Source: Escherichia coli
GTDB lineage: Bacteria; Pseudomonadota; Gammaproteobacteria; Enterobacterales; Enterobacteriaceae
DNA: 64,000 nucleotides
Direction: 5' to 3' (one strand)
Assembly: GCF_050320075.1 (NCBI RefSeq)
Contig: NZ_CP190018.1
In this document: piece after piece, positions 5,549-25,800 of the stretch
How the letters are laid out: each line of letters opens with the position of its first letter
Position numbering within the stretch: position 1 is the stretch's first letter
Notes under the pieces: generated by a model
The model's input: the letters and a program-made list of their open reading frames with translations, nothing else
What the model was told of the DNA's origin: nothing
The model's database searches: none
Made by a program: the position numbers and the translations under genes

Positions 5549-5671
5549 AGTGCAACGCTCTGCTTTATGCCATGGTGATTGGTTTCGGCCTGGTTGCTGG
5601 TATCCGGGTTTATATTACCTGGGAGTCATTAATCAATCTGGCGTGGAGTGCGATTCGTGGCTAAATCCCCC
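5549..5671 (+). CDS. Small hydrophobic peptide, 40 aa (MNKCNALLYAMVIGFGLVAGIRVYITWESLINLAWSAIRG); not in the ORF track
   Basis: ATG 5549 preceded by strong SD GGAGGTGA; single predicted TM helix; translated by hand. Confidence 0.35.
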
Positions 5672-5995
5672 GCAGAACGCAAAGCCGCGCAGCGCGCTCG
5701 GCAGTCCGCCGCCGGTGAGCGCAAAATTGAACTGGTGCTGGATAAGCAGGAGCAGGAAATGCTGGAGCGTAACTGTGCCACGCGTCGCCCCGGGCGTGCG
5801 CCTTACGAATTTGGGGAGTATATAGCGTTACTGATCCGCCAGGATGATGCACGCGTGCGCGGGCGTATAAAATCGATTAGCAGAAAACGTTGCGGTAAGT
5901 GCGGCGAGAAAGTTCCCGTTAATTCATGCCCGTGTAATGGTGACTCGCAATGCTGGGTGACTAAAGGCTGGCATGAAACGAAATTAATAGTGTGA
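5657..5995 (+). CDS. Hypothetical protein with C-terminal Cys cluster (CGKCGEKVPVNSCPCNGDSQC); possible regulator
   Basis: ORF 5648..5995, likely GTG start at 5657; stop TGA lies inside the GTGACATGTCAC palindrome. Confidence 0.4.
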   Translation: MAKSPAERKAAQRARQSAAGERKIELVLDKQEQEMLERNCATRRPGRAPYEFGEYIALLIRQDDARVRGRIKSISRKRCGKCGEKVPVNSCPCNGDSQCWVTKGWHETKLIV

Positions 5996-6003
5996 CATGT
6001 CAC
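5992..6003. repeat. Perfect 12-bp palindrome GTGACATGTCAC (copy 1)
   Basis: Read directly; overlaps the stop codon at 5993-5995 and precedes the terminator at 6045. Confidence 0.9.
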
Positions 6004-6044
6004 GAGTAGATTATGCATGATGAATTTGATGGGTTTTGAATACT

Positions 6045-6070
6045 GCCGCCAACTATGGCGGCTTTATTTT
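6045..6070 (+). terminator. Rho-independent terminator
   Basis: Hairpin GCCGCC-AACTAT-GGCGGC followed by TTTATTTT. Confidence 0.6.
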
Positions 6071-6081
6071 GCATGGTACTA

Positions 6082-6114
6082 TTACCACAACGGTAACAAT
6101 TACCATGGTGGTTA
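6082..6114. promoter_or_regulatory. Operator-like palindromes at 6082-6096 (TTACCACAACGGTAA) and 6100-6114 (TTACCATGGTGGTTA, degenerate) upstream of terminase genes
   Basis: Read directly; they lie inside the over-extended track ORF 6036..6710. Confidence 0.55.
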
Positions 6115-6710
6115 TGATGCCTGCTGAACCTAAAACCTATAAACGCAAATCAACGCAATTTAAGCCACTAACCGCAATGCAGGAGGCTTATTGCCAGTCA
6201 TACATCAAAACGCCTGAAAACCAGACTCAGGCAGCGATTAACGCAGGATTCTCCCCAAATACAGCGGCAGTTAAAGCCAGTGTCATGATGCGCGATGAAC
6301 GCATTCAAAAACGGATTGCCGAGTTGATGGAGGAGCGCAACAAACGAATGCGCGTCAGTGCCGATTACGTTCTCATGCGCCTGGTGGAGATCGACCAGAT
6401 GGACGTGATTGATATCCTCAATGACGATGGGAGCCTTAAGCCAATCCGCGAGTGGCCGAAAATCTGGCGCACTACGCTTAGTGGCTTTGATCTGTCATCG
6501 ACCATCATGAACATGAACGAGGATTCGATAGAGACAATTCTCAAAAAAATTAAATGGCCTGACAAGGTGAAGAACCTCGAACTGATTGGTAAGCACGTCG
6601 ACGTCAATGCATTCAAAGAACGCCTGGATGTTAATGTGAATGTGACAATTGCTGATCGCATAGCGGCAGCCAGGAAGCGACTCAAAGAACGTCAGGATGG
6701 TAATCAGTGA
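6114..6710 (+). CDS. Terminase small subunit (start trimmed from track ORF 6036; true start 6105-6117 uncertain)
   Basis: Segment LTAMQEAYCQSYIKTPENQTQAAINAGFSPNTAAVKASVMMRDERIQKRIAEL resembles the terminase small-subunit DNA-binding domain; directly upstream of the large subunit. Confidence 0.6.
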   Translation: MMPAEPKTYKRKSTQFKPLTAMQEAYCQSYIKTPENQTQAAINAGFSPNTAAVKASVMMRDERIQKRIAELMEERNKRMRVSADYVLMRLVEIDQMDVIDILNDDGSLKPIREWPKIWRTTLSGFDLSSTIMNMNEDSIETILKKIKWPDKVKNLELIGKHVDVNAFKERLDVNVNVTIADRIAAARKRLKERQDGNQ

Positions 6711-8182
6711 CAGATACAGCGTTATCTCCTGAAGAGCAGTTGATCGAGGATATTGCAGGGTTCACTCACGATCCGCTTGGCTATGCCCTCTATGCGTTCC
6801 CGTGGGGGGAAGAGGGGACTGAACTGGCACATGCTACCGGCCCACGTCAGTGGCAGGCTGATGCGTTCCGAGAGATACGTGATCACCTGCAGAATCCAGA
6901 GACGCGCTATCAGCCGCTTATGCTGGCACGCGCTTCTGGTCACGGTATTGGTAAATCCGCATTCATCTCAATGCTGATCAACTGGGGCATGTCCACTTGC
7001 GAGGATTGTAAGGTCGTGGTGACCGCCAACACCGACAACCAGCTACGAACGAAGACCTGGCCGGAAATTATCAAGTGGTCGAACCTTGCTATCACGAAAG
7101 ACTGGTTTACCTGTACCGCTACTGCGATGTACAGCAATGATCCTGGGCACGACAAGCGGTGGCGAGCTGACGCAATCCCCTGGTCTGAGCACAACACTGA
7201 GGCATTCGCCGGACTACACAACGAGCGCAAACGCATCATCGTGGTATTCGATGAAGCGTCGAACATTGCGGATCTGGTGTGGGAAGTTGCTGAGGGTGCG
7301 CTTACGGACGAAGACACTGAGATTATCTGGGTGGCGTTCGGAAACCCTACACGTAATACCGGGCGTTTTCGCGAATGTTTCCGCAAATACAAACACCGCT
7401 GGAAAACTGCGCAGATTGACAGCCGGACGGTGGAAGGTACTAACAAACAGCAGTTGCAGAAATGGGTTGATGACTACGGGGAAGACAGCGACTTCGTTAA
7501 AATCCGTGTGCGCGGCATATTCCCTGATGCATCTGAATTGCAGTTTATCCCTACCGGTCTTACTGATGAGGCAATGAAACGGGTGGTAACCGCTGCGCAG
7601 GTTGCACATGCTCCGGTGATAATCGGCGTTGACCCGGCATACTCCGGAGTTGATGACGCTGTGATATACCTGCGGCAGGGGCTGCACAGTAAGGTGCTGT
7701 GGACTGGCAACAAGACCACTGACGATCTGATAATGGCGAAGCGTATCGCTGACTTTGAAGACCAGTACCAGGCTGACGCAGTGTTCATCGACTTCGGTTA
7801 CGGAACTGGTCTGAAGTCAATCGGTGACGGCTGGGGTCGTACATGGCAACTTGTTCCGTTCGGTGGCGCGTCTACTGACCCGCAGATGCTCAACAAGCGT
7901 GGGGAGATGTTCAACTCATGCAAGACATGGCTGAGGCTGGGCGGGATGCTGGATGACCAGGAAACAGCAGACGACCTGTCGACGGCAGAGTACAAAGTTC
8001 GCGTGGACGGTAAAATCGTTATCGAACCGAAGGAAGATATCAAGGAGCGGCTTGGGCGTTCGCCGGGTAAAGGCGATGCGCTACTGCTGACGTTTGCGTT
8101 CCCTGTGTCTAAGCGTCTGCGAATTCCCGGGCAGCAGAACCAGCAAGGCAAGGCCATTACAGATTACGATCCCTATGCTTAA
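6707..8182 (+). CDS. Terminase large subunit
   Basis: 491 aa; P-loop-like ASGHGIGKSAF; overlaps the small-subunit stop; typical size and position. Confidence 0.8.
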   Translation: MTDTALSPEEQLIEDIAGFTHDPLGYALYAFPWGEEGTELAHATGPRQWQADAFREIRDHLQNPETRYQPLMLARASGHGIGKSAFISMLINWGMSTCEDCKVVVTANTDNQLRTKTWPEIIKWSNLAITKDWFTCTATAMYSNDPGHDKRWRADAIPWSEHNTEAFAGLHNERKRIIVVFDEASNIADLVWEVAEGALTDEDTEIIWVAFGNPTRNTGRFRECFRKYKHRWKTAQIDSRTVEGTNKQQLQKWVDDYGEDSDFVKIRVRGIFPDASELQFIPTGLTDEAMKRVVTAAQVAHAPVIIGVDPAYSGVDDAVIYLRQGLHSKVLWTGNKTTDDLIMAKRIADFEDQYQADAVFIDFGYGTGLKSIGDGWGRTWQLVPFGGASTDPQMLNKRGEMFNSCKTWLRLGGMLDDQETADDLSTAEYKVRVDGKIVIEPKEDIKERLGRSPGKGDALLLTFAFPVSKRLRIPGQQNQQGKAITDYDPYA

Positions 8183-8232
8183 TCCGTTAGCGGGGATAAT
8201 GACGGAGATATCCTCTGGTGAGGATAAAACAA

Positions 8233-8259
8233 AGCCAGCTCATCGGCTGGCTGTTTGTG
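8233..8259. terminator. Bidirectional terminator hairpin
   Basis: AGCCAGC-TCATCG-GCTGGCT flanked by T-rich runs on both strands; ends + strand terminase transcription and the minus-strand gene 8273..8644. Confidence 0.6.
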
Positions 8260-8268
8260 ACATGTCAC
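8257..8268. repeat. Perfect 12-bp palindrome GTGACATGTCAC (copy 2)
   Basis: Read directly; between the stop of minus gene 8273..8644 and the terminator hairpin. Confidence 0.9.
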
Positions 8269-8272
8269 GGTG

Positions 8273-8644
8273 TTATTGCTCGCTTAACTTCTGCTTCAGC
8301 AAGTAACCTTCAAGCATCCAGATTTTGTTTACAGCATTCTGCCGGGCAATCTTCCGACCAATTTCCGCATCAAAGTTTTCCGGGCTTGCACAGGCGCTCT
8401 CTCCGGTGACGGTGAAGCCGTTGCGCAGCACCAGAACGCAGAACGTCAGCAGAGAAAGTGATTCGTGCGGCTGGTAGTTTACCTCTCCGCCAGTATGTTT
8501 CGCTTTTATGGCTACGCCAAAGACACCATCTTCTGCTGTGAAATATGCCTCCTGAGCAATAATGCTCTCGATATGGTCTGGCGTAACGCGCGGCGCGGCT
8601 AAACCTTTAGCCTGAATTTCAGATTCAATGTCTTTGTCACTCAT
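8273..8644 (-). CDS. Hypothetical protein, opposite strand (moron-like)
   Basis: 123 aa ORF on the minus strand between terminase and the tRNA, with its own terminator; family not recognised. Confidence 0.5.
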   Translation of the reverse strand: MSDKDIESEIQAKGLAAPRVTPDHIESIIAQEAYFTAEDGVFGVAIKAKHTGGEVNYQPHESLSLLTFCVLVLRNGFTVTGESACASPENFDAEIGRKIARQNAVNKIWMLEGYLLKQKLSEQ

Positions 8645-8761
8645 AGTCTAATCTCACCTTAAAAAAATGCCCGGCGAACCGGGCGAACTGGAAGCAATGA
8701 GTTATGCCTTCCGTGGCTGTACTGGTTTACAGCATGAAGTCATCGCAATGGCGTCCTGCTG

Positions 8762-8803
8762 TAAAAAGGGCGGTGATAGTCCTTCAAGGGAAACCATCAC
8801 CGC
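8762..8803 (-). terminator. Possible terminator downstream of the phage tRNA
   Basis: Imperfect hairpin GGCGGTGAT...ATCACCGCC followed on the minus strand by CTTTTTA. Confidence 0.4.
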
Positions 8804-8847
8804 CAAGCACCTGGAACTTCTGGCATCACGGTCCTTAGGCGTGATTC

Positions 8848-8924
8848 TGGCGTGGCATGCAGGATTCGAACCTGCGACCAACCGCTTAGAAGGCGGTTGC
8901 TCTGTCCAACTGAGCTAATGCCAC
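8848..8924 (-). tRNA. tRNA-Arg (anticodon UCU, reads AGA), phage-borne
   Basis: Hand-folded cloverleaf: 7-bp acceptor stem GTGGCAT/ATGCCAC, D-stem GCTC/GAGC, anticodon stem ACCGC/GCGGT with loop CUUCUAA, T-arm GCAGG-TTCGAAT-CCTGC, encoded 3' CCA. Confidence 0.9.
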
Positions 8925-9247
8925 AACGCTGAGAGCACTTAGCCTGTTAAGTGCGCCACACTTTGTCGCAGCTCCATAAATGCTCTCATCGTTGTACCCT
9001 CGTCTCTTCCGAGGCGTCACACCGAATCGCCGGGATGGTGAATCCCCGTGCGCGGAATAAAACCGCTCGACTTGCACATTCCGGCTACCTGGTTCGTTTG
9101 CCCGAGCAAGGGAGGGTGCCCCTTAAACGTATCCAGACCGCTATCGGCGCATGTGCCATACGCCGTACTGCTCAAAATAAAAGCTCACTCCACCTGTTCA
9201 ATTTAACGACAAGCCAGTCAGGTTAATAACCGGAATGAACCATTTAC

Positions 9248-9262
9248 TTACCTGAAAGGTAA
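9248..9262. promoter_or_regulatory. Operator-like palindrome TTACCTGAAAGGTAA upstream of the portal operon
   Basis: Perfect copy of the motif, followed by TAATAA. Confidence 0.6.
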
Positions 9263-9352
9263 TAATTCGTGCGTTAAATGTCAACTACCTACGATAAATA
9301 AATCATATGTGGTTAAATTGGTAATAATTTAATTGCGTACGGAGTCATTGAT

Positions 9353-9559
9353 ATGTGCATGGGTAGCTCACCATCAGTGCCTGCAACACCAGAAGTTCAG
9401 GCAGCACCACAGGAGCAGGATGCCGCCGTTGTTGATGCCCGCGACGAAGAAACACGTCGCCGTCGCGCTGCTGCTGGTCGTAGTTCTACGCTGCTTACCG
9501 GTTCTCAGGGCGACACATCAACTGCTAATACCAGCGGTAAAACGCTGCTTGGTCAGTAA
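9353..9559 (+). CDS. Small low-complexity protein (68 aa)
   Basis: GGAG RBS; its translation initiation region (CGGAGTCATTGA + ATG) is nearly identical to that of the portal gene. Confidence 0.45.
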   Translation: MCMGSSPSVPATPEVQAAPQEQDAAVVDARDEETRRRRAAAGRSSTLLTGSQGDTSTANTSGKTLLGQ

Positions 9560-9573
9560 CCGGAGTCATTGAA

Positions 9574-11253
9574 ATGGCGGAAACAACTAAAGAGCGATTG
9601 AGCAAACAGTTCGCACAACTTGAAAGCGAGCGTCAGTCGTTCGAGCCGCACTGGCGCGAGTTGAGTGATTACATCAACCCGCGTGGTTCCCGCTTTCTGA
9701 CTTCTGAGGCCAACCGTAACGATCGGCGCAATACACACATTATTGATTCGACCGGGACTATGGCGGCGCGCACTCTCGCCAGCGGCATGATGTCAGGCAT
9801 CACAAGCCCCGCGCGTCCGTGGTTTCGCCTGGCTACGCCAGATCCTGAAATGATGGATTATGGCCCTGTTAAGTTGTGGCTTGAGGCGGTGCAGAACCGC
9901 ATGAACGATATGTTCAATAAGTCGAATCTCTATCAGTCGCTGCCGCAGTTATACGGAAGCCTCGGCACATACAGCACCGGTGCAATGGCGGTACTGGAGG
10001 ATGATGAGGACATCATTCGCACAATGCCATTCCCGATAGGCAGTTACTACCTGGCTAACTCACCTCGTGGCAGTGTTGACACCTGTTTTCGCAAGTTCTC
10101 TATGACTGTTCGTCAGCTTGTTCAGGAGTTCGGGCTAAATAACGTCAGCGAATCCGTAAAAAGCATGTGGGAAAGCGGCATCTACGAGAAGTGGATTGAC
10201 GTGATGCATTCGGTTTACCCGAACATTGACCGCGATACATCGAAGCTGGATAGCAAGAACAAGCCATTCAAATCGGTTTATTACGAGGTTGGTGGCGATA
10301 ACGACAAGTTGTTGCGTGAGTCCGGATTCGATGAGTTTCCAATTATGGCTCCGCGCTGGGAAGTTAACGGTGAAGATGTTTATGGATCATCATGCCCGGG
10401 CATGCTGGCGCTTGGACCTGTTAAGGCATTGCAGCTTCTCCAGAAGCGCAAGTCGCAGTTGATTGATAAAGCCACCAATCCGCCGATGGTTGCTCCGACT
10501 TCCCTCAAGAATCAGCGCGCCTCCCTTCTTCCTGGCGACATCACGTATATCGATCAGATTACTGGTCAGGATGGCTTCAGGCCTGCTTATCTGGTTAACC
10601 CCAGTACAGCAGATTTGGTGGCAGACATTCAGGACACTCGTCAAATCATTAACAGCGCCTACTTTGTCGATCTGTTCATGATGTTGCAGAACATCAATAC
10701 CCGCTCGATGCCTGTTGAAGCGGTGATCGAAATGAAAGAAGAAAAACTTCTGATGTTGGGGCCGGTTCTGGAGCGTCTGAACGACGAATGTCTTAATCCT
10801 CTCATTGACCGCGCTTTCTCGATGATGGTGCGTAAAAACATGCTGCCGCCACCGCCTGACGCGATGGAAGGCATGCCCCTGAAGGTCGAATACATTTCCG
10901 TCATGGCTCAGGCGCAGAAGTCTATCGGCCTGTCCAGTCTGGCGTCCACGGTTAACTTCATTGGTCAACTTGCGCAAGCGAAACCAGAAGCTCTCGACAA
11001 ACTCAACGTTGATCAGGCGATCGATGCATTCGCTGATATGTCCGGAGTGTCTCCAACCGTCATTGTTCCGCAGGAACAGGTTGAGCAGGCTCGCCAGCAA
11101 CGGGCACAGCAGCAACAGCAGCAACAAATGATGGCGATGGGGATGGCGGCGGCACAGGGGGCCAAGACGCTAAGCGAAGCTAAAACTTCGGATCCGAGTG
11201 TTTTGTCAGCTATGGCGAATGCAGTTAGTGGTCAGGGTGGGCAATCACAATGA
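9574..11253 (+). CDS. Portal protein
   Basis: 559 aa, immediately after the terminase region; size and position typical. Confidence 0.7.
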   Translation: MAETTKERLSKQFAQLESERQSFEPHWRELSDYINPRGSRFLTSEANRNDRRNTHIIDSTGTMAARTLASGMMSGITSPARPWFRLATPDPEMMDYGPVKLWLEAVQNRMNDMFNKSNLYQSLPQLYGSLGTYSTGAMAVLEDDEDIIRTMPFPIGSYYLANSPRGSVDTCFRKFSMTVRQLVQEFGLNNVSESVKSMWESGIYEKWIDVMHSVYPNIDRDTSKLDSKNKPFKSVYYEVGGDNDKLLRESGFDEFPIMAPRWEVNGEDVYGSSCPGMLALGPVKALQLLQKRKSQLIDKATNPPMVAPTSLKNQRASLLPGDITYIDQITGQDGFRPAYLVNPSTADLVADIQDTRQIINSAYFVDLFMMLQNINTRSMPVEAVIEMKEEKLLMLGPVLERLNDECLNPLIDRAFSMMVRKNMLPPPPDAMEGMPLKVEYISVMAQAQKSIGLSSLASTVNFIGQLAQAKPEALDKLNVDQAIDAFADMSGVSPTVIVPQEQVEQARQQRAQQQQQQQMMAMGMAAAQGAKTLSEAKTSDPSVLSAMANAVSGQGGQSQ

Positions 11254-11546
11254 CAGATTACGAAGACGATCAACTGAAAGAAGAAAACGCCCGTAAGCAA
11301 CGTGACATGGCACAGCGTGAAATTGATGACATTCGCTTTGTCATGAGCTGTGAACAGGGGCGTCGGGTTGTCTGGTCGGTACTGGAGAAAGGCCGTGTGT
11401 TTTCCGCTATCTCGCCGATGGACGCTATGGCAATGGCATTTAATGAGGGGCAACGCAATCTGGCGCTGGAACTGTTTCAGCGCGTTATGGCGCATTGCCC
11501 TGAACAGTATTTGAAGATGGCCAAAGAGGCCAGTGAACAGGAGTGA
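11250..11546 (+). CDS. Hypothetical head-morphogenesis protein
   Basis: 98 aa ORF overlapping the portal stop. Confidence 0.45.
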   Translation: MTDYEDDQLKEENARKQRDMAQREIDDIRFVMSCEQGRRVVWSVLEKGRVFSAISPMDAMAMAFNEGQRNLALELFQRVMAHCPEQYLKMAKEASEQE

Positions 11547-11548
11547 TC

Positions 11549-12244
11549 ATGAATTTATTTGAGCGTTTGCTGTATAGCCGTCTTTGCAATGAGCAACCAG
11601 TCGATGGTGGAGCAGCTCCGGCTGCGTCAGAACCGTCAGCGCCTGCAGGTGATAACCCTGCTCCAGTTGGTGATCCATCACAACAGGAAGGTGATAAGCC
11701 ACAACCTGTTGCTGATGGCGATAAACCTGCTGATGACAAAAAGCCTGAAAACGATAAGCAGGATGAAAAAAAGGACGGCGATAAACCAGAGGGTGCGCCT
11801 GAGAAGTACGAGTTTCAGGCTGCCGAAGGCGTAGAGCTGGATACAGAAGCGTTGAAGGAGTTCGAGCCGGTGGCGCGAGAACTTAACCTGACCAACGAGC
11901 AAGCGCAAAAGCTGGTTGATGCTTATCCGAAAATTCTGGCAGGTGTTCAGCAGCGCCAGGCAGAAGCCTGGCAGAAAACAACCGAGCAGTGGGCTGCGGA
12001 TGTAAAAGCTGACAAAGAAATCGGTGGCGACAAGTTGATTTCTAACCTTAGCGCCGCACAGCGTGCGCTTGACCAGTTCGGGACACCTGAACTCAAAGAA
12101 TATCTGAACACCACCGGGCTGGGTAATCACCCTGATCTGGTCAAAACGTTCGTGAAAATCGGAAAGGCTATGTCTGAAGATGGCATGGTCACCGGTGGTA
12201 ATGAAGGCCAGCGTAGTGCGGCCGAAGTGCTCTATGGCAAATAA
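11549..12244 (+). CDS. Scaffold-like protein (acidic, Pro/Asp/Lys-rich N-terminus)
   Basis: Low-complexity acidic region with GDKP repeats; position between portal and capsid. Confidence 0.5.
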   Translation: MNLFERLLYSRLCNEQPVDGGAAPAASEPSAPAGDNPAPVGDPSQQEGDKPQPVADGDKPADDKKPENDKQDEKKDGDKPEGAPEKYEFQAAEGVELDTEALKEFEPVARELNLTNEQAQKLVDAYPKILAGVQQRQAEAWQKTTEQWAADVKADKEIGGDKLISNLSAAQRALDQFGTPELKEYLNTTGLGNHPDLVKTFVKIGKAMSEDGMVTGGNEGQRSAAEVLYGK

Positions 12245-12258
12245 GAGAGGAGATAACA

Positions 12259-13245
12259 ATGTCTGTTAAAGGCTTAACTGCGCTAACGCTGGCTGACTGG
12301 GGTAAGCGCGTCGATCCAAATGGGAAAGTCGATAAGATTATCGAGCTTCTCAATCAAACTAACCCAATTCTTCAGGATATGCCTTTTGTTGAAGGAAACC
12401 TTCCTACCGGACACCGAACCACCATTCGTTCTGGTTTACCTTCTGCTACCTGGCGTTTGCTGAACTATGGCGTACAGCCAAGCAAATCAACCACAGTGCA
12501 GGTCACCGATTCCATTGGCATGCTGGAAACCTATGCTGAAGTCGATAAGTCTCTGGCTGATCTGAACGGTAATACTGCCGAATTCCGTCTGTCTGAAGAC
12601 CGAGCATTTATTGAAGCGATGAATCAGGCGATGGCGCAGACACTGTTTTACGGTGATTCCAGCGTTAACCCTCAGCAGTTTATGGGACTGTCCTCCCGCT
12701 ATTCCAGCCTGTCTGCGGGTAATGCTCAGAACATCATTGATGCTGGTGGCACGGGTACAGATAACACTTCAATCTGGTTAGTGGTGTGGGGCGAAAACAC
12801 CGTGCATGGCATCTTCCCGAAAGGACAGAAGGCTGGCATTCAGATGGAAGATAAAGGCCAGGTGACACTGGAAGATGCTAAAGGCGGCAAGTACGAAGGT
12901 TATCGTACCCATTATAAGTGGGACAACGGGCTGACATTACGTGACTGGCGCTATGTAGTTCGTATCGCAAACATTGATGTCAGTAATCTTGACGCTCCTT
13001 CTACTGCCGCGAATATCGCAAAACTGATGATTCGTGCCCTTCATCGAATCCCAAATCGTGGGATGGGACGTCCTGTTTTCTACATGAACAGAACCATTAA
13101 CGAAGTGCTTGACCTGCAATCTCTGGAGAAGAGTTCTCTGGCGATCAGCGTGAAAGAGACAGAAGGCGAATGGTGGACAGCACTTCGTGGTGTGCCGATT
13201 CGTGAAACTGACGCACTTCTGGAAACAGAAGCCCGCGTGGTGTAA
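12259..13245 (+). CDS. Major capsid protein
   Basis: 328 aa; strong RBS GAGAGGAG; position after the scaffold-like gene. Confidence 0.65.
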   Translation: MSVKGLTALTLADWGKRVDPNGKVDKIIELLNQTNPILQDMPFVEGNLPTGHRTTIRSGLPSATWRLLNYGVQPSKSTTVQVTDSIGMLETYAEVDKSLADLNGNTAEFRLSEDRAFIEAMNQAMAQTLFYGDSSVNPQQFMGLSSRYSSLSAGNAQNIIDAGGTGTDNTSIWLVVWGENTVHGIFPKGQKAGIQMEDKGQVTLEDAKGGKYEGYRTHYKWDNGLTLRDWRYVVRIANIDVSNLDAPSTAANIAKLMIRALHRIPNRGMGRPVFYMNRTINEVLDLQSLEKSSLAISVKETEGEWWTALRGVPIRETDALLETEARVV

Positions 13246-13296
13246 CGCCTGTTATTAACCTGTGGGCCGCAACAGGCCCACTAATGGAGAAAGAAG

Positions 13297-13734
13297 ATGA
13301 TCACCGACAAACTGTTGATGTTCTCCGAAGCACAGGCGGTAACTGATACCGCGGCTTCTACTGACGTAATCGATCTCGGTCCAATTGACGGAAACCGTCG
13401 CGATATCGGTGTGGGTTACCCGCTTGAGTTTTGGGTGCTGGTTAACGAAGCCGCCACGGCAAGTGGTGAGGCAACTGTAAACATCCAGTTGCAGACGAGT
13501 GAGAATAACAGCTCATGGTCCACTATTTATGATAGTGGCGCACTGGCAAAGGCCACCCTGACAGCAGGTAAGCGAGTTGTTTCTGCAAAGGTGCCTGCCG
13601 GTGTTCAGCGATATCTGCGTGTTAACTACTCCGTCGCAACTGGCCCACTAACGGCTGGCAAATTCACTGCGGGTATCAATCTTGATGTTGATGCCAATAC
13701 GCCGTATCCGATCCGCTCAAAAGTAACTGGTTAA
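13297..13734 (+). CDS. Hypothetical virion protein (possible capsid decoration)
   Basis: 145 aa, GGAGAAAG RBS, directly after the capsid gene. Confidence 0.45.
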   Translation: MITDKLLMFSEAQAVTDTAASTDVIDLGPIDGNRRDIGVGYPLEFWVLVNEAATASGEATVNIQLQTSENNSSWSTIYDSGALAKATLTAGKRVVSAKVPAGVQRYLRVNYSVATGPLTAGKFTAGINLDVDANTPYPIRSKVTG

Positions 13735-13744
13735 GGTGATATTG

Positions 13745-14080: not shown

Positions 14081-14136
14081 GCCTCGCGAATCAGACAAGG
14101 GGCTTCGGCCCCTTTATTGCAGGAGTATAGAAACTT

Positions 14137-17677: not shown

Positions 17678-18222
17678 TGTGCGATCCGGTTATTGCTGGT
17701 GGCGCAATGCTCGCCATGAGTGGCATTCAGGCATACACCCAGTACCAACAGGGAAAGTATGCCTCGAAGGTTGCAGAAGCGAACGCAGATATAGCCACAG
17801 CTCAGGCAAATGATGCAATAAACAGAGGTAACGCTGAAGCTGAGCAACGGCGCAGAGAGACCCGACAGCGGCTTGGTACACAGGCGGCGACAATGGGGGC
17901 TACCGGCGCTGATTTATCTACAGGTAACGCGCTGGATATATTTGGTGACACTGCTCAGTTTGGCGCTCTTGATTCGCTAACGACGGTGAATAACGCGCAA
18001 CGCGAGGCTTACGGTTATCAGGTTCAGGCTGCCAACTATAAAGCAGAAGCCAGATCAGCCCGTAAACAGGGGAATGTGGGAGCAGCAACAACATTGCTCA
18101 CTGCGCCTCTGAAGGCATACGGTGCGTACCAGATGTTTGGTGGGACGTGGAGTCCGTTTACTCAAAGCACTCCTGCGCCAATCGGGGCAGCAGCAGGAAC
18201 CAGATTACCCGGAGGATTATAA
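17677..18222 (+). CDS. Hypothetical internal virion protein
   Basis: 181 aa, Ala/Gly/Gln-rich. Confidence 0.45.
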   Translation: MCDPVIAGGAMLAMSGIQAYTQYQQGKYASKVAEANADIATAQANDAINRGNAEAEQRRRETRQRLGTQAATMGATGADLSTGNALDIFGDTAQFGALDSLTTVNNAQREAYGYQVQAANYKAEARSARKQGNVGAATTLLTAPLKAYGAYQMFGGTWSPFTQSTPAPIGAAAGTRLPGGL

Positions 18223-20843
18223 TGCCAGTCGTACCAACAGTATCCGGACGTCAGGTTGAGAGCCGTGGAGTTCAGTCAGCAGGCTTGCAGATGTTTTCTC
18301 AGCCAGGTATTGGTGATGCTTTTGTTCTGGCAGGGGCAGAGGCTATTGATGTTCTGGGTCAGGCAAAACAGCGTGCCAATATTGCCTTGGTTCAGGAGGC
18401 ATCCCTTAAACTCAGTCAGACAGGCAGCGATCTGCTGAATAACCCTGAAACAGGTTTGCTTAACCTGAAAGGGAAAAATGCTATTGGAAAAGGTCAGGAG
18501 TATACGCAGCAGTTTGATGCTCAGGTCGAACAACTGGCTATGTCGCTGCCGGATGAACAGGCTCGTAATGCTTTCATGCAGCAGGCGCAGCAGCAGCGCA
18601 TTCAGTTCACTACGCAGGCCGGGAGGTACGAAATAGGACAGGTTCGCCAGTATGAGGCGGATATGCAGGATGCGACACTAAAAAACCTATCGATGCAGTT
18701 CCGTAACCCGACAATGGCAAACCAGGCAGGATTGAAGGCATATCATAGCATCATCGCTTACGGAGAAGCCCACGGCCAGAGTCAGGAAGAGATCGAACAG
18801 AACTGGGTTTCGTGGCGCGAGAATGCCGCGAACGGTGCGGCGGAGGCGTGGTATGTGCCGATGTATCAACAGATGATGGGTCCGAACGGCAAGATTGAGG
18901 TAACCGATACACCGAGTGAGGCGCAGTTATTCTCTGCAATAATCTGGCAGGAGAGTGGCGGAAATCAGTACGGAAAGGACGGAACACCTCTGGTGTCGCC
19001 AAAAGGCGCTGTTGGCGTAGCGCAGGTGACGGAAGATACTGGCCCCGAAGCTGCCCGCCTTGCTGGCGTGCCGTGGGACCGCGATAAATGGTTGAATGAC
19101 CCGCGCTATAATGCCCGCTTGGGGCAAGCTTATTTCGGCGCGCAGATGAAGAAATACGACAATAACCCGGTTCTGGCAGTAGCTGCCTATAACGCTGGCC
19201 CAGGAAAGGTTGACGGCTGGATTAAACAGATTGGCGATCCGCGCACAGGCGAAGTCAGTAACGCCCAGTTTGCCGCAGCTATCCCATACGACGAGACGCG
19301 CAATTATGTGGCAAAAGTAACTGGCAGTGCTGGAGCTATTCCTGGATCTGCGACGATGGAAAACCTCATCGCACAGCCATTCTGGAACGCCATGAGTCCG
19401 GACAAAAAGTCGCAGATGATGAGCAAGGTTGCTGGCATGTACGACATGCAGGCTTCAGCCGGTCGCGTTGCGCTACAGAGTCGAATGCAGGACGACCTAT
19501 CCAAAATTGAGGCCGGTAAGCAGGTGACGCCTATTTCAGCGCACGAATGGGCCGCCGTTATGCCGCTTCAGGCAGCGCCTGCCGAGCGCCTGCAGATGGA
19601 AAAAACCTTCCAGCAATACCAGCAGGCAATGACGCTACAACCTGTTTATCAGACCATTATGCAGGGCAACGTCCAGCAGGGTACCGCCGCCGTGCAGGCA
19701 ATGGCACCGCAGGAAAACGACCCTGACTTTAAATACAAAGCAGAGCTTTATGCATCGGCAAAGGTCAAGCTTGGGCAGGTACTGAAGGCGCGGGAAGCGG
19801 ATCCGGGGGCATGGCTGCAACAAAACTCTCCGGTTGTGCAGGCTGCATTCCAGCAGTACCTGAATGACCCTTCATCTGGTGAATACCTAGTTTCCCGCAT
19901 ACAGTCTGAAAAAGACCGCCTGGGGATAATGAGCAAAAAAGTTTTACCGGAGTCCATGGTCAACGACGTACTGCAGCGTATTGACAACACGCAGGAATCT
20001 AGCGTAAAGGCCATTCAGTCGGTGGCGCAGTCGTTCGGCAAATACTCGGATCAGGTGATGCGGCAGGTGCAAAATAAAGCATTCCCAGCTTTAAAGGTTG
20101 TAATGTCTACAGAAAACCAACGGGCAGCAGATGCGTTGTGGCAAATACGGAATGTACCTACTTCTGATTTGAGATCTGGTTTGGATAAAAACCAGGCAGA
20201 CAGTGCAGACTCATCGTGGACAGATCAATTTAAAGATTTTTCTTCAACTCTTATTCCTCAGAGAAATGGTGCTGAAAACTGGACTATTTATAACGAGCAG
20301 GGAAAACGCTTGACCTACAACTACATGCAGCGCGGAATGTCGGCGTCTGATGCAGCAAAACAGGCGTATCAGGACCTTCTCGGCGAGCAGTACCAGACCA
20401 ATGGCACTTGGCGGCTACCTAATCGTGCAGGGGTAGATATTCGTGACGTTAACGATGGTGCCAATGCGTATCTGAAAAACCTGTCAGCAGATCAGATTAT
20501 GCCGCTTATTGGTGACCCAAGGCTACCTGATGAGGTCAACCGTGAGCAGAGTATCTCCCGCATTCGTGATAATGCGCAGTGGGTTACCAACAGCGACGAA
20601 ACAGGACTTACCCTGATGCTCAACGGGCTGATCGTCAACGGTGCCGACGGCAACTCGATTACGGTGACGTTCAACGATCTGGCGAAACTGGGAACAACCA
20701 ACCGATCAGTATGGAACCGCATTACCAAGTTCATTGATACTCCGGTGAAATATACTCCCGGACAGTCTAAGGAATACAGCGCAGAAAGTCAGCGCGACAA
20801 CCTGATTAACATTTTCCAGAACGGCCAGCAATCAGGACGATAA
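18222..20843 (+). CDS. Ejection/internal virion protein with lytic transglycosylase (SLT-like) domain; start moved to ATG 18222
   Basis: GGAGG RBS before MPVVPTV; region AIIWQESGGNQYG...VGVAQVTEDTG...AYNAGPGKV resembles the SLT active-site region. Confidence 0.65.
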   Translation: MPVVPTVSGRQVESRGVQSAGLQMFSQPGIGDAFVLAGAEAIDVLGQAKQRANIALVQEASLKLSQTGSDLLNNPETGLLNLKGKNAIGKGQEYTQQFDAQVEQLAMSLPDEQARNAFMQQAQQQRIQFTTQAGRYEIGQVRQYEADMQDATLKNLSMQFRNPTMANQAGLKAYHSIIAYGEAHGQSQEEIEQNWVSWRENAANGAAEAWYVPMYQQMMGPNGKIEVTDTPSEAQLFSAIIWQESGGNQYGKDGTPLVSPKGAVGVAQVTEDTGPEAARLAGVPWDRDKWLNDPRYNARLGQAYFGAQMKKYDNNPVLAVAAYNAGPGKVDGWIKQIGDPRTGEVSNAQFAAAIPYDETRNYVAKVTGSAGAIPGSATMENLIAQPFWNAMSPDKKSQMMSKVAGMYDMQASAGRVALQSRMQDDLSKIEAGKQVTPISAHEWAAVMPLQAAPAERLQMEKTFQQYQQAMTLQPVYQTIMQGNVQQGTAAVQAMAPQENDPDFKYKAELYASAKVKLGQVLKAREADPGAWLQQNSPVVQAAFQQYLNDPSSGEYLVSRIQSEKDRLGIMSKKVLPESMVNDVLQRIDNTQESSVKAIQSVAQSFGKYSDQVMRQVQNKAFPALKVVMSTENQRAADALWQIRNVPTSDLRSGLDKNQADSADSSWTDQFKDFSSTLIPQRNGAENWTIYNEQGKRLTYNYMQRGMSASDAAKQAYQDLLGEQYQTNGTWRLPNRAGVDIRDVNDGANAYLKNLSADQIMPLIGDPRLPDEVNREQSISRIRDNAQWVTNSDETGLTLMLNGLIVNGADGNSITVTFNDLAKLGTTNRSVWNRITKFIDTPVKYTPGQSKEYSAESQRDNLINIFQNGQQSGR

Positions 20844-20844
20844 C

Positions 20845-22542
20845 ATGCCAATTTACACAGATGATCCGGGACAGGGCATTAACCAGCCAATTGGCAACGC
20901 GCCAGCAGGGCTTGGCGAATCGCTGCTTTCTTCCCTTAAGCAGGGATTTGAAGAGGGGCCGGTCATGTCCGGCTACCGCTTTGCGCAGGTCGACTCGCTG
21001 GCGAATGACCCAAACTCTACAGTTATCAGTAAGCAGGACGCAGATGAGCTCCTGAAGCAGTACGGCGTAAAGAGCATAAACGTGCCAGATTCTGGCGTTA
21101 CGCAGGCTTTTCTCGATCATGTTATTGCCGAACGCAAAGATTCTCTGGCACGCCAGCAGATTGCGATGTCGGCACCGAGCGGGTGGGTAGCCACGCCGCT
21201 TAATTTCGCAGCCAGCCTAGCTGGTTCAATGGCAGATCCTGGTAACGTGGCGCTGGCGCTGGTTCCGTTCGCTGGAGAAGCAAAGGCAGCTTCTGTGCTT
21301 GGCCGATTTGGCGAGCGATTTGTTGCGGGTGCACGCATGGGGGCAGCGCAGGCGGTGGTGACCGTGCCGTTTACCGGGCTGGCAGCGGCGGCGGAAGGTG
21401 ACGACTTCACCTATAGCAACGCGTTGGAAAGTACTTTCTTTAACACGATGGCTGGCGGTCTAATGCATGCCGGCGGCGGCCTTATCGCCGATATCGTGCG
21501 ACCGCGTCGCGTTCCCGATGCTGCAACGGGAGAGTCCCCGGCGTTTTCTGGCGATGCGCAGCCAACCCCGGTGATAACGCCTGACAACATTCCGGCGGGC
21601 GTGAATATCCCTGAGGTTGGCGCTAACGCAGATCTGGCGGCGGCCATTTCCAGTGAAGCGGAGAGCTACGCATACAGCCGGGCTTATGACGACGTGGTTC
21701 CTGACTATATGGCGCGCCAGCAGGAGTTACAGAGCGGACAGATCGGTAACGTTGCCGACCTGCGTGCCGAGCTTGCGGCTAATCAACGTCATGCTGACTC
21801 GCTTGATGCGACTCTGCAGCAGCGCACCAAAAAGTATCAGGGGCAGCGGATGAAGTTTAAGGATGCGCGCTCTAGGGCACTGAAAGAGATTCAGGCCGAG
21901 AAAGACGCCATCGCTGCACGCAATCAGGAGATCAACACATCGCTGGAGCAGAACGCGACAGCAGAGCAGGCGCGCTGGCACCAGTCTCAGATTTCCCGCG
22001 GCGAGATCCCCGACGACCTGAAAGTCACCATTTCCGAGCGTGCGCAGCAGATCCTGGACGGCATGCAGATGTCGCCGATCGCTGGCGCAGTTCGCACTGC
22101 CGCAAGCGCCATCAGGGATGCTGACTGGAGCGTGAACCAGCAGGCGTATCGCGCTGCGCTGGCACACATGATGGAAGGACGTAGCCCAGATGTTGAGCCC
22201 TTCTATGAACTGCACAAATCGGCACTGCGTGAACGCGCCATCCATCGCATACAGAACCCGGCACGGCAGGTTGATGAAACGGCTCGCCCAGTAAGCGAAA
22301 CAGCCGATCGGGTTTATCAAGAAACGCAAAAGGCAGATCATGAAATTACCGCTGCCGCTGCAGACCTTGATAACGAGCTCAACCTGAGTAACGCCCTGCT
22401 TGACGATATCGCTGTCGATAACCCTGATCTTGCGACCACGTTGCGCCAGAAACTCAATGATATTCGTGCCGACGCCAGCGACAATAGCATGAGCAACGCT
22501 TTCCGGGCATTTGCCGCCTGTATGATTAACCGGGGGATGTGA
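20845..22542 (+). CDS. Putative ejection/internal virion protein
   Basis: 565 aa, Ala-rich, coupled. Confidence 0.45.
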   Translation: MPIYTDDPGQGINQPIGNAPAGLGESLLSSLKQGFEEGPVMSGYRFAQVDSLANDPNSTVISKQDADELLKQYGVKSINVPDSGVTQAFLDHVIAERKDSLARQQIAMSAPSGWVATPLNFAASLAGSMADPGNVALALVPFAGEAKAASVLGRFGERFVAGARMGAAQAVVTVPFTGLAAAAEGDDFTYSNALESTFFNTMAGGLMHAGGGLIADIVRPRRVPDAATGESPAFSGDAQPTPVITPDNIPAGVNIPEVGANADLAAAISSEAESYAYSRAYDDVVPDYMARQQELQSGQIGNVADLRAELAANQRHADSLDATLQQRTKKYQGQRMKFKDARSRALKEIQAEKDAIAARNQEINTSLEQNATAEQARWHQSQISRGEIPDDLKVTISERAQQILDGMQMSPIAGAVRTAASAIRDADWSVNQQAYRAALAHMMEGRSPDVEPFYELHKSALRERAIHRIQNPARQVDETARPVSETADRVYQETQKADHEITAAAADLDNELNLSNALLDDIAVDNPDLATTLRQKLNDIRADASDNSMSNAFRAFAACMINRGM

Positions 22543-25091
22543 TGGCAGCAAACGAATTTTTGACGCAGTGCGAGCGCAGTGTAAATGCTGCCGCTGGTCG
22601 CGAGCTTTCTTCCGATGAGATGGAGTCGCTGGTGCGTGACATGAACGACACCACTAGGCGAATTCTGGCGACCAATGAGGCGCTGTCTCTGGAAGAGGCC
22701 GCGATGCGCGCAGCGGAAGAACTGAGCAATGCCGATATGCTGGCAAAACAGATTGAGTCCCGCAATAAGGCAATCAACACCCGTATTGCCGCACAACGAC
22801 TTAGAGAGCTTCGTACTATCTGGAAAGACCGCCCGGATATCGGGCTTGAAGCAATGCTGGTTGGCCGCAACGATGCGCGTACCGGCGCCCGCCGGTCGGT
22901 ATCTTCGGAGGTGGCGCAACTGCGCGGCAAGTATCATTCCGGTATCAACTACGATTTTGACCGTGCCGGGCTGGTGCAATTCATCGCCAGCGGCAGCAAT
23001 GACAGGGAAATTGCCGATGCAATGTGGCGCATAGGGCGCGGGCAGTCAACTGACGGTATGACAAGGCAATCCGTAAGCGCTGCACAAATCATCATGAAAT
23101 GGCAGGAAACTGCGCACATTGATGAGAACCGCGCCGGGGCATGGATACGCAAAGAGCCGGGCTATATAGTGCGCCAGTCACACGACATCATGAAGATCCG
23201 CGCCGCAGGTTATGAAGCATGGCGAAATGCTATTCTCCCGCGCCTTGATGAGCGCACTTTTGACGGCGTGGCTGACCGCGAGCAGTTCATGCGTAACATT
23301 TATAACGGGCTGGCTTCCGGCGTGCATCTTACATCTGAAAAGCCCGATTGGATGAATGGCTTTAAGGGATCGGCGAACGCAGCTAAACGCGCCAGCCAAG
23401 AGCGAATTTTGCACTTCAAAGATGGTATCTCGTGGCACGAGTACAACCAGCAATTCGGCACCGGCAGCCTGCGAGAGGCGCTGTTTGGTGGCTTAAACAG
23501 CGCTGCCCGCACAACGGGCATGATGCGCGTACTGGGCACTAACCCACAGAACATGTTTAAGTACCTGACGGACACCATTGCTGAAGATATCAGCAAATCC
23601 GGAAGACCGGCAGCGTTGGCTGACTACATGACGAAGGTGCGTCGCATTAACCGTACCGTAATGCCGCAGGTTGACGGCTCGCTAAATATTCCTGGCAGCG
23701 TAGGCTGGGCCAATGCGTCGGCGGCTGTACGCGGCTGGTTGCGTATGAGCCAGCTTGGTGGCGCGGTAATCTCATCGTTTAACGACGTGCCTATCGCCGC
23801 TACCGAGATGCGCTACCAAGGGCAGAATTTTATGCAGGCGTTGCTTGGTGCTATGAGAGGCCGCTTCACGCGTTACAACAGCGCGGAGCAGAAAGAGATC
23901 CTTTCCTCTATCGGAGTTTATTCCGACTCCATGACGCAGGAAATCATCCGGCGTATATCTGGTGATGACACGCTGAATGGAAAACTTGGTCGCGCGCAGC
24001 AGCTTTTCTTTAAGTACAACCTCATGAACTTCTGGACCGAGAGCGGTCGCAACAGCAACGCCATGATGATAACCAACTGGCTTGCAAAGAATGCTGACCA
24101 GCCTCATGCGCGGCTACCGGAAGACCTGCGACGCGTGCTGGATCTGCACGGTATTGGCGAACGTGAGTGGGAAATTTTTCGCAACATGGACATGGCCGAT
24201 AGCGAAGGTCGTAAGTTCATGACGACCAGCGGCATCCGCGGCGTGCCTGACGAAGTGATTGCCGGTTATGTAGAGAGTAAGGGGATCAAGCCAACGCAGC
24301 GCGCTATCGCTGACGCACGCGATCAATTGGAAGGGCAGTTGCGCGGCTACATCCTTGACCGCCTGAATATCGCCATGTCAGAGCCTGGCGATCGCACGCA
24401 GGCGTTTATGAAGATGGGCACGGTGCCAGGAACGGTGGCTGGGGAAGCAATACGATTCGCTGGTCAGTACAAATCGTTCACTGCAAGCTTCATGCAGAAC
24501 GTACTAGGACGCGAAGTATTCGGGCGTGGTTATATTCCTGCTGGGCTTGGTGAGTCGAAAACCGGATCGCTGACGAATGCTCTGCTGCGTAACGGGAAGG
24601 GGGCTTTCCTTGGTGCTGCAAACCTCTTTGTCTGGGCGACTATGTTTGGTTATATCTCCATGCAGTCAAAACTCATGCTGAAAGGGCAAACACCACGCCC
24701 GGCAGATGCCAAGACGTTTCTCGCAGCCGCATCTCAGGGGGGCGGTCTTGGCATCTTGGGTGACTTCATGTTTGGCGAGGTCAACCGCATGGGGGCCGGG
24801 CCGGTTACGTCGCTAATGGGACCGGCAGCATCGAACGCTGACAGCATTATCACGCTGCTCCAGCAGACCACGAGAGGGGATGCAGATTTGGGTGACTGGT
24901 ATCGCACGGCACTTGACAATACGCCATTCCTCAACGTGTTCTGGCTTCGTACGGCGATGAATGGTTTAATATTGAACCGGATACAAGATGCCCTTGACCC
25001 AGGCTCTCTTGAGCGTTATCAGCGCCGTGTTGAGCGTGAGCAGGGTAACGAATTTCTGATCCCACCATCGCAGTTCATGCTAGGGAAGTAA
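22539..25091 (+). CDS. Putative ejection/internal virion protein
   Basis: 850 aa, coupled. Confidence 0.45.
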   Translation: MMAANEFLTQCERSVNAAAGRELSSDEMESLVRDMNDTTRRILATNEALSLEEAAMRAAEELSNADMLAKQIESRNKAINTRIAAQRLRELRTIWKDRPDIGLEAMLVGRNDARTGARRSVSSEVAQLRGKYHSGINYDFDRAGLVQFIASGSNDREIADAMWRIGRGQSTDGMTRQSVSAAQIIMKWQETAHIDENRAGAWIRKEPGYIVRQSHDIMKIRAAGYEAWRNAILPRLDERTFDGVADREQFMRNIYNGLASGVHLTSEKPDWMNGFKGSANAAKRASQERILHFKDGISWHEYNQQFGTGSLREALFGGLNSAARTTGMMRVLGTNPQNMFKYLTDTIAEDISKSGRPAALADYMTKVRRINRTVMPQVDGSLNIPGSVGWANASAAVRGWLRMSQLGGAVISSFNDVPIAATEMRYQGQNFMQALLGAMRGRFTRYNSAEQKEILSSIGVYSDSMTQEIIRRISGDDTLNGKLGRAQQLFFKYNLMNFWTESGRNSNAMMITNWLAKNADQPHARLPEDLRRVLDLHGIGEREWEIFRNMDMADSEGRKFMTTSGIRGVPDEVIAGYVESKGIKPTQRAIADARDQLEGQLRGYILDRLNIAMSEPGDRTQAFMKMGTVPGTVAGEAIRFAGQYKSFTASFMQNVLGREVFGRGYIPAGLGESKTGSLTNALLRNGKGAFLGAANLFVWATMFGYISMQSKLMLKGQTPRPADAKTFLAAASQGGGLGILGDFMFGEVNRMGAGPVTSLMGPAASNADSIITLLQQTTRGDADLGDWYRTALDNTPFLNVFWLRTAMNGLILNRIQDALDPGSLERYQRRVEREQGNEFLIPPSQFMLGK

Positions 25092-25092
25092 T

Positions 25093-25464
25093 ATGAACAG
25101 AATTATATTAATGATTATTCTTATGCTTTTAGCTGTAAAATCTTTTGCAGATACTACCTCACCGTTAATGATTCAGCCTAAAAATGGGGAAACACTGGAG
25201 GACTCTAAAAAGCATACAATGGAATATTTTGGATGTATAAAAGGGCAGGCCGTAAAATACGCTAAGACAGGAGAAAGTGTTGATTCTATATCCAAAGCTT
25301 CGGTTGTGTCATGCGAGTCGTACATACAAAAGATTGCTGAATCAAATATATACTATTTAAATTCCTCTCAAGACGGTAAGCGGAAATTTATTGGAAGGCT
25401 TAAATCAGATGGTGAAAATTTAGCAACGAAATTTGCTATGGATGAAAAGCTAAAAAATAAATAG
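25093..25464 (+). CDS. AT-rich moron: small secreted/periplasmic protein (signal peptide MNRIILMIILMLLAVKSFA)
   Basis: 123 aa; visibly lower GC than flanking genes; N-terminal signal-peptide-like segment. Confidence 0.55.
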   Translation: MNRIILMIILMLLAVKSFADTTSPLMIQPKNGETLEDSKKHTMEYFGCIKGQAVKYAKTGESVDSISKASVVSCESYIQKIAESNIYYLNSSQDGKRKFIGRLKSDGENLATKFAMDEKLKNK

Positions 25465-25471
25465 GTGACAC

Positions 25472-25768
25472 ATGCAAGCGATAGGATTCATTGTTTATAT
25501 CGTCGTTGGTCTTTTTCAGTTGGCAGCAATTATGGCTGGGCTTGAATCATGGTGGGGATTGCACTGGATAATTGCAGCCCCCATTGCTTTCATCGTGAGC
25601 TATATTCCATTTGTTGGAGCGATTGTTGGTATGGTTGGTGCTGTGGATGTATGGCGGTGGGAGTGGTGGCAGGCTGGCCTTCTCTTCTTTGGTGGGATCA
25701 TCTTTGCTATTGTCTGCGGTGGAATGTCATCATTTTTCGAACGGCTATCATTCAGAAAAGGAACGTGA
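25472..25768 (+). CDS. Small integral membrane protein (about 3 TM helices)
   Basis: 98 aa, hydrophobic segments; stop TGA inside the GTGACATGTCAC palindrome. Confidence 0.55.
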   Translation: MQAIGFIVYIVVGLFQLAAIMAGLESWWGLHWIIAAPIAFIVSYIPFVGAIVGMVGAVDVWRWEWWQAGLLFFGGIIFAIVCGGMSSFFERLSFRKGT

Positions 25769-25776
25769 CATGTCAC
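25765..25776. repeat. Perfect 12-bp palindrome GTGACATGTCAC (copy 3)
   Basis: Read directly; overlaps stop 25766-25768; followed by a terminator. Confidence 0.9.
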
Positions 25777-25800
25777 AGGCCGCTTTCGCGGCCTTGTTTT
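25777..25800 (+). terminator. Rho-independent terminator
   Basis: AGGCCGC-TTTC-GCGGCCT followed by TGTTTT. Confidence 0.65.

Follow-up and report, generated by a model that had tools for sequence, protein, structure and literature searches.

A dispersed GTGAC-N2-GTCAC palindrome in an epsilon15-like prophage as the probable DNA site of the phage protein p55

Introduction

Why would a temperate phage keep the same perfect 12-bp palindrome, GTGACATGTCAC, at three separate places in its genome? The question arises from a stretch of 64,000 nucleotides of Escherichia coli DNA (contig NZ_CP190018.1, RefSeq assembly GCF_050320075.1), referred to here as the window, of which annotation assigns positions 1 to ~33300 to a prophage of the phiV10/epsilon15 type (Uetakevirus), as its right part. 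An earlier note, made from the letters alone, had drawn attention to the palindrome and offered three explanations for it: a protein-binding site, a part of a conserved terminator module, or a junction that marks moron insertion or recombination. The analysis presented here supports the first of these. Based on sequence comparison and a structural model, we consider it probable that all three are recognised as cognate DNA sites by p55, a protein of the phage itself and our candidate because the stop codon of its gene lies inside the first copy and because gene and motif co-occur across phages.

Results

The prophage genes run from the repressor through replication, terminase and structural genes to the tail fibre and lysis genes, and host genes follow from yfgI onward. 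The palindrome is present exactly at 5992-6003, 8257-8268 and 25765-25776, with no other exact copy in the 64 kb. Three exact 12-mers compare with 0.03 expected, and 100 dinucleotide-preserving shuffles of the window gave 0 matches, which bears out both the count and the excess over chance that the earlier note had claimed. All three copies lie within the prophage, and 30.6 kb of host DNA contain 0. The unit is a 14-mer, TGTGACATGTCACG at sites S1 (5991-6004) and S2 (8256-8269) and its reverse complement, CGTGACATGTCACA, at S3 (25764-25777). Across relatives the outer bases of the 14-mer are symmetric, Y...R, with YGTGACATGTCACR as the symmetric form, and the two central bases vary, giving the geometry GTGAC-N2-GTCAC. 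A copy with one mismatch, GTGACATGGCAC, lies inside a structural-region gene at 11302-11313; this variant is also in phiV10 and not in epsilon15, and it recurs in a P2-like phage (L297, 14423-14434), where its centre lies 33 bp from that of a perfect site. As a fourth site, 11302-11313 is doubtful.

Site S1 holds the TGA stop (5993-5995) of a 112/115-aa gene, that of p55 (5657-5995, plus strand, 112 aa), with which the early-right operon closes. The palindrome stands 41 nt before the terminator at 6045-6062 (feature T1, 6045-6070, plus strand), which ends that operon ahead of the operators and the small terminase gene. Site S3 holds the TGA stop (25766-25768) of a 98-aa open reading frame (ORF) and touches the terminator at 25777-25794 (T3, 25777-25802, plus strand), which ends the structural operon and is annotated in phiV10 and epsilon15. 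For these two copies, the described order of gene stop, palindrome and terminator holds. Site S2 lies between the terminator after the large terminase gene and the stop of a minus-strand cargo gene; on the plus strand it comes after the terminator, and the order holds only for the minus-strand Gp49-family gene (8273-8644, stop 8273-8275) with its terminator at 8252-8233 (T2, 8233-8252, minus strand, annotated as a terminator in phiV10), a hairpin that the terminase transcript also meets. Likewise, the description of all three genes as small accessory ORFs is right for copies 2 and 3 and wrong for copy 1, which ends a conserved, regulator-like gene.

The p55 gene belongs to the epsilon15 gp49 / phiV10 p55 / N15 gp46 family and matches PHROG 536 (‘transcriptional regulator’). 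Homologs include epsilon15 gp49, N15 gp46, ZF40 gp22 and AH07 gp31 as well as Yersinia P2-like and Vibrio phage proteins; the family forms 195 clusters at 50% identity, and the hosts seen (Escherichia, Salmonella, Klebsiella, Yersinia, Pectobacterium, Pantoea, Vibrio and Aeromonas) are all gamma-proteobacteria. Searches of Pfam, NCBIfam and PDB sequences with p55 gave no match, and PADLOC and BFVD returned nothing informative. An AlphaFold2 model built from an alignment of 64 diverse family members (pLDDT 91.5) has a basic helix at residues 8-21, an extended segment at 25-31, helices at 33-45 and 55-77 and a Cys-rich knuckle at 82-102, followed by a closing helix. This is the beta-alpha-alpha order of the ribbon-helix-helix fold, and the protein is predicted to combine that fold with a Cys4 zinc knuckle and a C-terminal helix. 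Among the best-conserved residues are those of the basic N-terminal helix and the paired cysteines. Such an architecture, if the model is right, would be expected of a dimer that recognises a short palindrome in which the half-sites are fixed and the centre is free.

The pairing of gene and motif was examined in sequences chosen by homology or by protein alone, the distant family members by protein identity only, with their contigs then fetched. In ~435 kb of such DNA we found 31 GTGAC-N2-GTCAC sites against ~0.4 expected; the same half-sites with spacers of 0, 1, 4, 5 or 6 occur zero times, and with a spacer of 3 once. Taken as whole genomes, N15 has 3 sites, ZF40 has 3 exact copies of GTGACATGTCAC, two of them inside genes, and AH07 has 2. 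The stop codon of the p55 gene lies within the site in the Uetakeviruses, in AH07 (GTGACCTGTCAC) and in N15 (GTGACTGGTCAC), while in ZF40 TGTGACATGTCACA starts 1 nt after the stop of the homolog and the 12-mer core 2 nt after it. A Mu-like phage has one site in the coding 3' end of its p55 homolog, where it encodes VTGH; in an N15-like phage the single site is within repA, as far from the start as it is in N15; and a P2-like phage has one intergenic site. In a Vibrio phage whose protein is 33% identical there are three sites, with a site just upstream of the start codon of the small terminase gene, and in locus L300 a site lies 3 nt before the start codon of the p55 homolog. Three further lineages have two sites each, in two of them as tandem pairs. 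The centres of paired sites are separated by 23 bp in two lineages and by 33 bp in another, and such pairs would be an architecture typical of cooperative protein binding.

The neighbouring genes vary by lineage (terminase, gp47, gemA, Q, xis), and the p55 homolog is their sole common companion. Profile searches detected no p55 homolog in Mu, lambda, PY54 or the host DNA, and Mu, lambda and the 30.6 kb of host DNA contain zero GTGAC-N2-GTCAC sites. PY54, an N15-like phage, has no sites either, even at the repA position that is occupied in N15 and in the second N15-like phage. At the level of sequence, these comparisons show that gene and motif keep company in about ten temperate-phage backbones that have no other relationship, with sites in every lineage sampled through a p55 homolog alone, and that the p55 gene itself usually has a site fixed to its 3' end. 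Two very short loci that bear a homolog have no site.

Similar half-sites were also met in other settings. Lambda (L306), which has no p55 homolog, contains two GTGAC-N1-GTCAC sites, at 9747 and 19010 inside G and lom, against ~0.05 expected; these may be due to chance. A scan of IMG/VR for the 14-mer brought up many contexts that are unrelated or due to chance, coding MRDMSQ starts among them. In some of the IMG/VR contigs (L044, L051, L058, L059, L071, L080, L082, L085, L086, L090 and L095), dense GTGACA/TGTCAC-type repeat arrays in both orientations surround the 14-mer match. These contigs are unrelated and mostly GC-rich viral, no p55-like ORF was found in the stretches of them that were fetched, and the arrays may belong to another protein with a similar half-site.

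Within the genus, the sites are fixed in position. The earlier note had set the absence of positional conservation in relatives beforehand as the refuting outcome, and this outcome did not occur. In epsilon15 and Tyrion, both chosen by homology only, the exact 12-mer stands at the same three places; in phiV10 two of the copies are exact, and the first place reads GTGACATGTTAC. The window is 100% identical to E. coli YZLc1-3 (NZ_CP123240.1) over bases 1-25000, its terminase region is 97-98% identical to phiV10, typing phages 9 and 10 and TL-2011b, and epsilon15 is ~75% identical in DNA. An ungapped comparison of the window, phiV10, epsilon15 and Tyrion gave 100% invariance of the site at S2 and S3, with flank positions 4-33% invariant. 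For S1, 80 IMG/VR loci were found by protein alone; the sequence extends as far as the stop codon in 78, and 75 of these have the exact palindrome there. For S2, 80 loci with a 99-100% identical large terminase were surveyed; the site is present in ~66 of them, and 6 more have a variant with one mismatch.

Exchange of accessory genes at the sites

The DNA beside the sites is exchanged freely. S2 is flanked by two terminator types on one side and by at least eight cargo ORF types on the other, the Gp49-family gene of the window being one, and each of these minus-strand ORFs ends within a few bases of the 14-mer. The exchangeable segment extends from S2 to ~8650, where homology resumes at the cargo ribosome-binding site. 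In two loci (L145 and L146) the site is ‘empty’ (33 bp), and comparison of L142 with L126 and L153 shows one and the same cargo attached, on the far side of the 14-mer, to different terminators. Beside S3 there are at least seven cargo ORFs. The variable slot before it, from the last structural gene to the site, holds two small ORFs in the window (123 aa and a 98-aa membrane protein; 25093-25768, plus strand) and different genes in phiV10, epsilon15 and Tyrion. The earlier note had suggested a comparison of synteny breakpoints between related prophages at the sites, and the BLAST breakpoints of database phages coincide with the palindrome at copies 2 and 3, those of copy 3 falling at query positions 162-176, which is the site.

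These observations would suit a pure recombination junction, a crossover or insertion site for accessory cassettes that serves as a site-specific target or a homology linker and needs no regulatory protein: the clustered breakpoints, the alternative cargoes, the cargo shared between two terminators and the empty site all agree with it. However, no recombinase is associated with the sites, the other boundary of the cargo cassette has no copy of the motif, the sites in ZF40 and N15 lie within conserved genes and not at mosaic joints, and the motif tracks the p55 gene and not the cargo hot spots. Exchange at a short invariant island is, moreover, expected in any case. We therefore regard recombination as an unlikely sole explanation. 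The mosaic joints are more plausibly a side effect of having an invariant 14-bp island where operons end than what the site is for, in that 14 invariant bp beside freely exchangeable DNA would offer short homology patches for swapping accessory-gene cassettes. The junction proposed in the earlier note is thus apt as a description and not as the reason for which the site exists.

A model for p55 and its sites

Each operon of the Uetakeviruses starts at an immunity-type operator, and the sites mark the other ends: S1 the end of the early-right operon, S2 the convergent cargo/terminase pair and S3 the end of the structural operon. This arrangement, with operators at the starts of the operons and the sites at their downstream ends, flush against terminators, makes a boundary function attractive. 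In the model that we propose, a p55 dimer would read the two GTGAC half-sites, probably through its invariant N-terminal basic helix and beta-ribbon, and p55, made late in the early phase, would occupy the operon boundaries as a DNA-level ‘bookend’. There it could insulate them or block read-through and convergent transcription, or it could tie the boundaries together architecturally, as has been proposed for MatP at matS. If p55 does bind the sites, insulation or roadblock on the one hand and architecture or bridging on the other weigh roughly equally, and classical regulation or antitermination weighs less.

Several points weigh against p55 as the partner of the sites. The link between the two consists of co-occurrence and a fold prediction only, and several of the counted genomes share one lineage, so that the 31 sites are not independent events. 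Locus L277, whose p55 homolog is 80% identical, has no site within 4 kb on either side; a Yersinia P2-like locus with a homolog has none in 5 kb; and L292 has none at the stop of its own p55 homolog. The positions of the sites are also heterogeneous, at operon ends, inside genes and just before start codons, so that no single transcriptional mechanism fits and a simple roadblock is disfavoured. The intragenic and pre-start sites favour a function for which a few occupied points on the chromosome suffice.

A more novel reading would make p55 and GTGAC-N2-GTCAC a phage-borne counterpart of MatP and matS. Here p55 would be an organiser that bridges or marks a few points of the phage chromosome and interferes with, or escapes, the handling of the host chromosome by MukBEF, other SMC-type complexes or MatP, the sites being one bp ‘off’ matS so that the host protein skips them. 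We put this forward as speculation, to which we give a rather low probability.

A more direct role for the host can also be considered, in which MatP or another nucleoid protein binds the sites and the p55 gene is incidental or an antagonist. Gamma-proteobacteria of these host genera carry MatP, every host seen belongs to this class, and the half-sites of matS are identical to those of the phage site. Against this, the spacer is 2 and not 3 in 31 of 31 sites, and a change of 1 bp displaces and turns one half-site with respect to its partner. Related phages of comparable hosts that lack p55, such as PY54, have no sites, and prophages avoid true matS (PMC3603311). Binding by a host factor is accordingly a poor candidate.

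Transcription around the sites

The p55 gene stands where lambda has Q, at the end of the early genes and just ahead of a terminator and the late genes. It could thus be a processive antiterminator, Q- or RfaH-like, that boards RNA polymerase at the palindrome before T1 or T3 and carries it through into the late genes. Read in the sense of the gene upstream, each of the three sites comes before a terminator, and some relatives have a TTGACT-17-TATACT promoter 5 bp after S1. The late operons, however, have their own operator-controlled promoters, so that read-through is unneeded, and at S2 it would give antisense terminase RNA. Several of the p55-bearing phages also encode a Q protein, no promoter above chance stands out at S1-S3 in the window, and we know of no ribbon-helix-helix protein that acts as an antiterminator. 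Compared with the lambda Q/qut arrangement, S1 has the terminator, with no promoter in the window and a consensus one after the site in some relatives, and S2 and S3 do not fit. We give antitermination little credence.

The promoter in question has the consensus sequence in L027, L042, L067, L078, L091 and L105 (IMG/VR). In these six relatives its -10 hexamer overlaps a LexA-box-like CTGT-N8-ACAG, and this overlap suggests an SOS-controlled transcript that begins beside S1.

If the palindrome were instead an RNA element or part of a terminator module, it would cooperate with the neighbouring hairpin at transcript 3' ends, for instance in termination efficiency or RNA stability. In this genus the association is close: a strong intrinsic terminator with a perfect stem begins 0-5 nt downstream of the 12-mer in 54 distinct contexts, and the RNA of S3 and T3 combined folds somewhat better than shuffles (z = -2.5). 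Yet the adjoining hairpins differ in sequence, with at least six different ones, while the 12-mer is constant. The 12-mer lies outside the terminator hairpins, its own fold as RNA (-1.2 kcal/mol) is no better than that of shuffles, and no Rfam family matches at S1-S3. The distance from S1 to its terminator ranges from 22 to ~240 nt across relatives. In ~23 of them an intact 70-aa ORF (MPKIRYDLEDMRD...DEFDGL) starts 12 nt after S1; the 41-nt gap between S1 and T1 in the window is due to deletion of this ORF, which has left the 8-codon remnant MHDEFDGF and a stop (6012-6038, plus strand). Finally, the sites of ZF40, N15, AH07, the Mu-like phage and the Vibrio phage are intragenic or just before start codons and have no terminator nearby. 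The conserved terminator module that the earlier note had suggested describes the arrangement in this genus only, and as an explanation of the site we judge it very improbable.

Some further candidates were tried and rejected. A genome end, pac or cos site came to mind since the phiV10 record is cut inside copy 1; the cut simply follows the stop of the last gene, and the sites of N15, ZF40 and AH07 are distant from the terminase genes. A polarity of the 14-mer (T...G, with variable DNA on the G side) is contradicted by L099, where it is flipped, and by ZF40 and epsilon15 S3, which are fully symmetric. As a promoter, with GTGACA like a -35 hexamer, the element reaches only 9 of 12 matches, not above chance, and the downstream sequences differ by cargo. 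An operator that overlaps a regulated promoter finds no above-chance promoter at S1-S3, and elsewhere the sites are intragenic or at 3' ends. The consensus of CRP is TGTGA-N6-TCACA; the element reads TGTGA-N4-TCAC[GA] and does not have the 6-bp spacer. Integron attC cassettes were dismissed as well, the only integrase annotated in relatives being of the P4/lambda phage type and the other cassette boundary lacking the motif. The immunity operator is a distinct motif, ATTACC-N5-GGTAAT, unrelated to the palindrome.

Other features of the prophage

The motif ATTACC-N5-GGTAAT is annotated as the repressor operator in epsilon15. The window has eight sites with 0-1 mismatch, at 95, 2426, 2488, 6081, 6099, 9247, 26877 and 28312, with copies upstream of the terminase, portal and tail-fibre operons. 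Since operator copies precede these operons, the arrangement suggests direct control of late operons by the immunity repressor. On the minus strand, Rfam matches to C4 antisense RNA (27713-27799) and isrK (27819-27895) lie just upstream of a BRO-N antirepressor gene (26978-27664), and 27713-27895 looks like a P1/N15-like RNA-controlled antirepressor module.

The exchangeable cargo ORF is immediately preceded by a tRNA-Arg gene (8848-8924, minus strand) with its own terminator hairpin (8669-8684, minus strand), the latter forming the other boundary of the cargo cassette. Between this terminator and the cargo ribosome-binding site no space is left for a promoter, and for this reason expression of the cargo seems to need read-through. 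At 4613-5542, RefSeq records three pseudogene fragments, including a DUF551 C-terminus, and the window itself has one uninterrupted ORF of 309 aa.

Significance and comparison with known systems

The 12-mer was not found in the literature searched. The ZX5 paper makes no mention of palindromes or terminators, and the epsilon15 record, in which many binding sites are annotated, does not include the GTGAC-N2-GTCAC site; the pairing of p55 with this site is apparently undescribed so far. PHROG 536, a family for which there is no Pfam or NCBIfam model, can now be linked to a precise DNA motif. The pairing spans podo-, sipho- and myovirus-type temperate phages, phage-plasmids and Mu-like transposable phages, which makes the function of the family directly testable. 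It also explains the invariant island that recurs at the edges of accessory hot spots in epsilon15/phiV10-like prophages, which are common in E. coli and Salmonella and whose phages serve as reporter phages. In annotation, GTGAC-N2-GTCAC can be used as a marker of the p55 module and of cassette boundaries, and the identity of its half-sites with those of matS raises the possibility of cross-talk with the organisation of the host chromosome.

The nearest known site is matS, a 13-bp element with the consensus GTGAC[AG]N[TC]GTCAC (PMC3603311). Its half-sites are the same, its spacer is 3 bp, and the phage site has 12 bp with a strict 2-bp spacer. No matS was found in the window, even with a variable centre. 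In Vibrio phage K233 g1 (L307), a 13-mer at 19491, GTGACACCGTCAC, fits the matS consensus, in addition to the three spacer-2 sites of this phage. The proteins show no sequence similarity (hhalign probability 0.2%); p55 has a zinc knuckle and, unlike MatP, no four-helix bundle, and its sites are on phage DNA, not in Ter.

The predicted fold of p55 is shared with Arc, Mnt, MetJ, CopG, omega and ParD/MazE. Targets of ribbon-helix-helix repressors are, like the phage sites, short and symmetric or repeated, sometimes in tandem with a spacing of helical turns. Their operators overlap the regulated promoter, whereas p55-type sites lie at 3' ends and in or between genes with no evident promoter, and p55 adds the Cys4 knuckle and a conserved basic N-terminal helix. 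For a site at the 3' end of the gene of its own protein there is an analogy in lacI O3, where, in work attributed to Abo and colleagues in 2000, binding reportedly truncates the gene's own mRNA and leads to tmRNA-mediated autoregulation; p55-type sites are, in addition, found far from the gene.

The centromere sites of N15 SopB are likewise several identical palindromes dispersed in a phage genome, some of them intragenic. In the N15-like locus L292 there are seven copies of the SopB-type GGGACC-N2-GGTCCC; at 5065-5103 one of them is 13 nt from a p55-type site in a repA-like gene. The sequence and the protein family (ParB) are different, and Uetakeviruses, which integrate, lack a partition ATPase. 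Morons and linker sequences of mosaic temperate phages also combine single accessory ORFs, each with its own terminator, with short conserved joints. By comparison, the element described here is one specific 14-mer, three per genome, that is common to unrelated phages in which it is not at a joint.

Proteins of the ribbon-helix-helix fold that pair with a palindromic site are, as such, of an already known kind. What is new is that the site is welded to the end of its own gene, that a few dispersed copies stand at operon ends, and that the half-sites are invariant across unrelated backbones while differing from matS by one bp.

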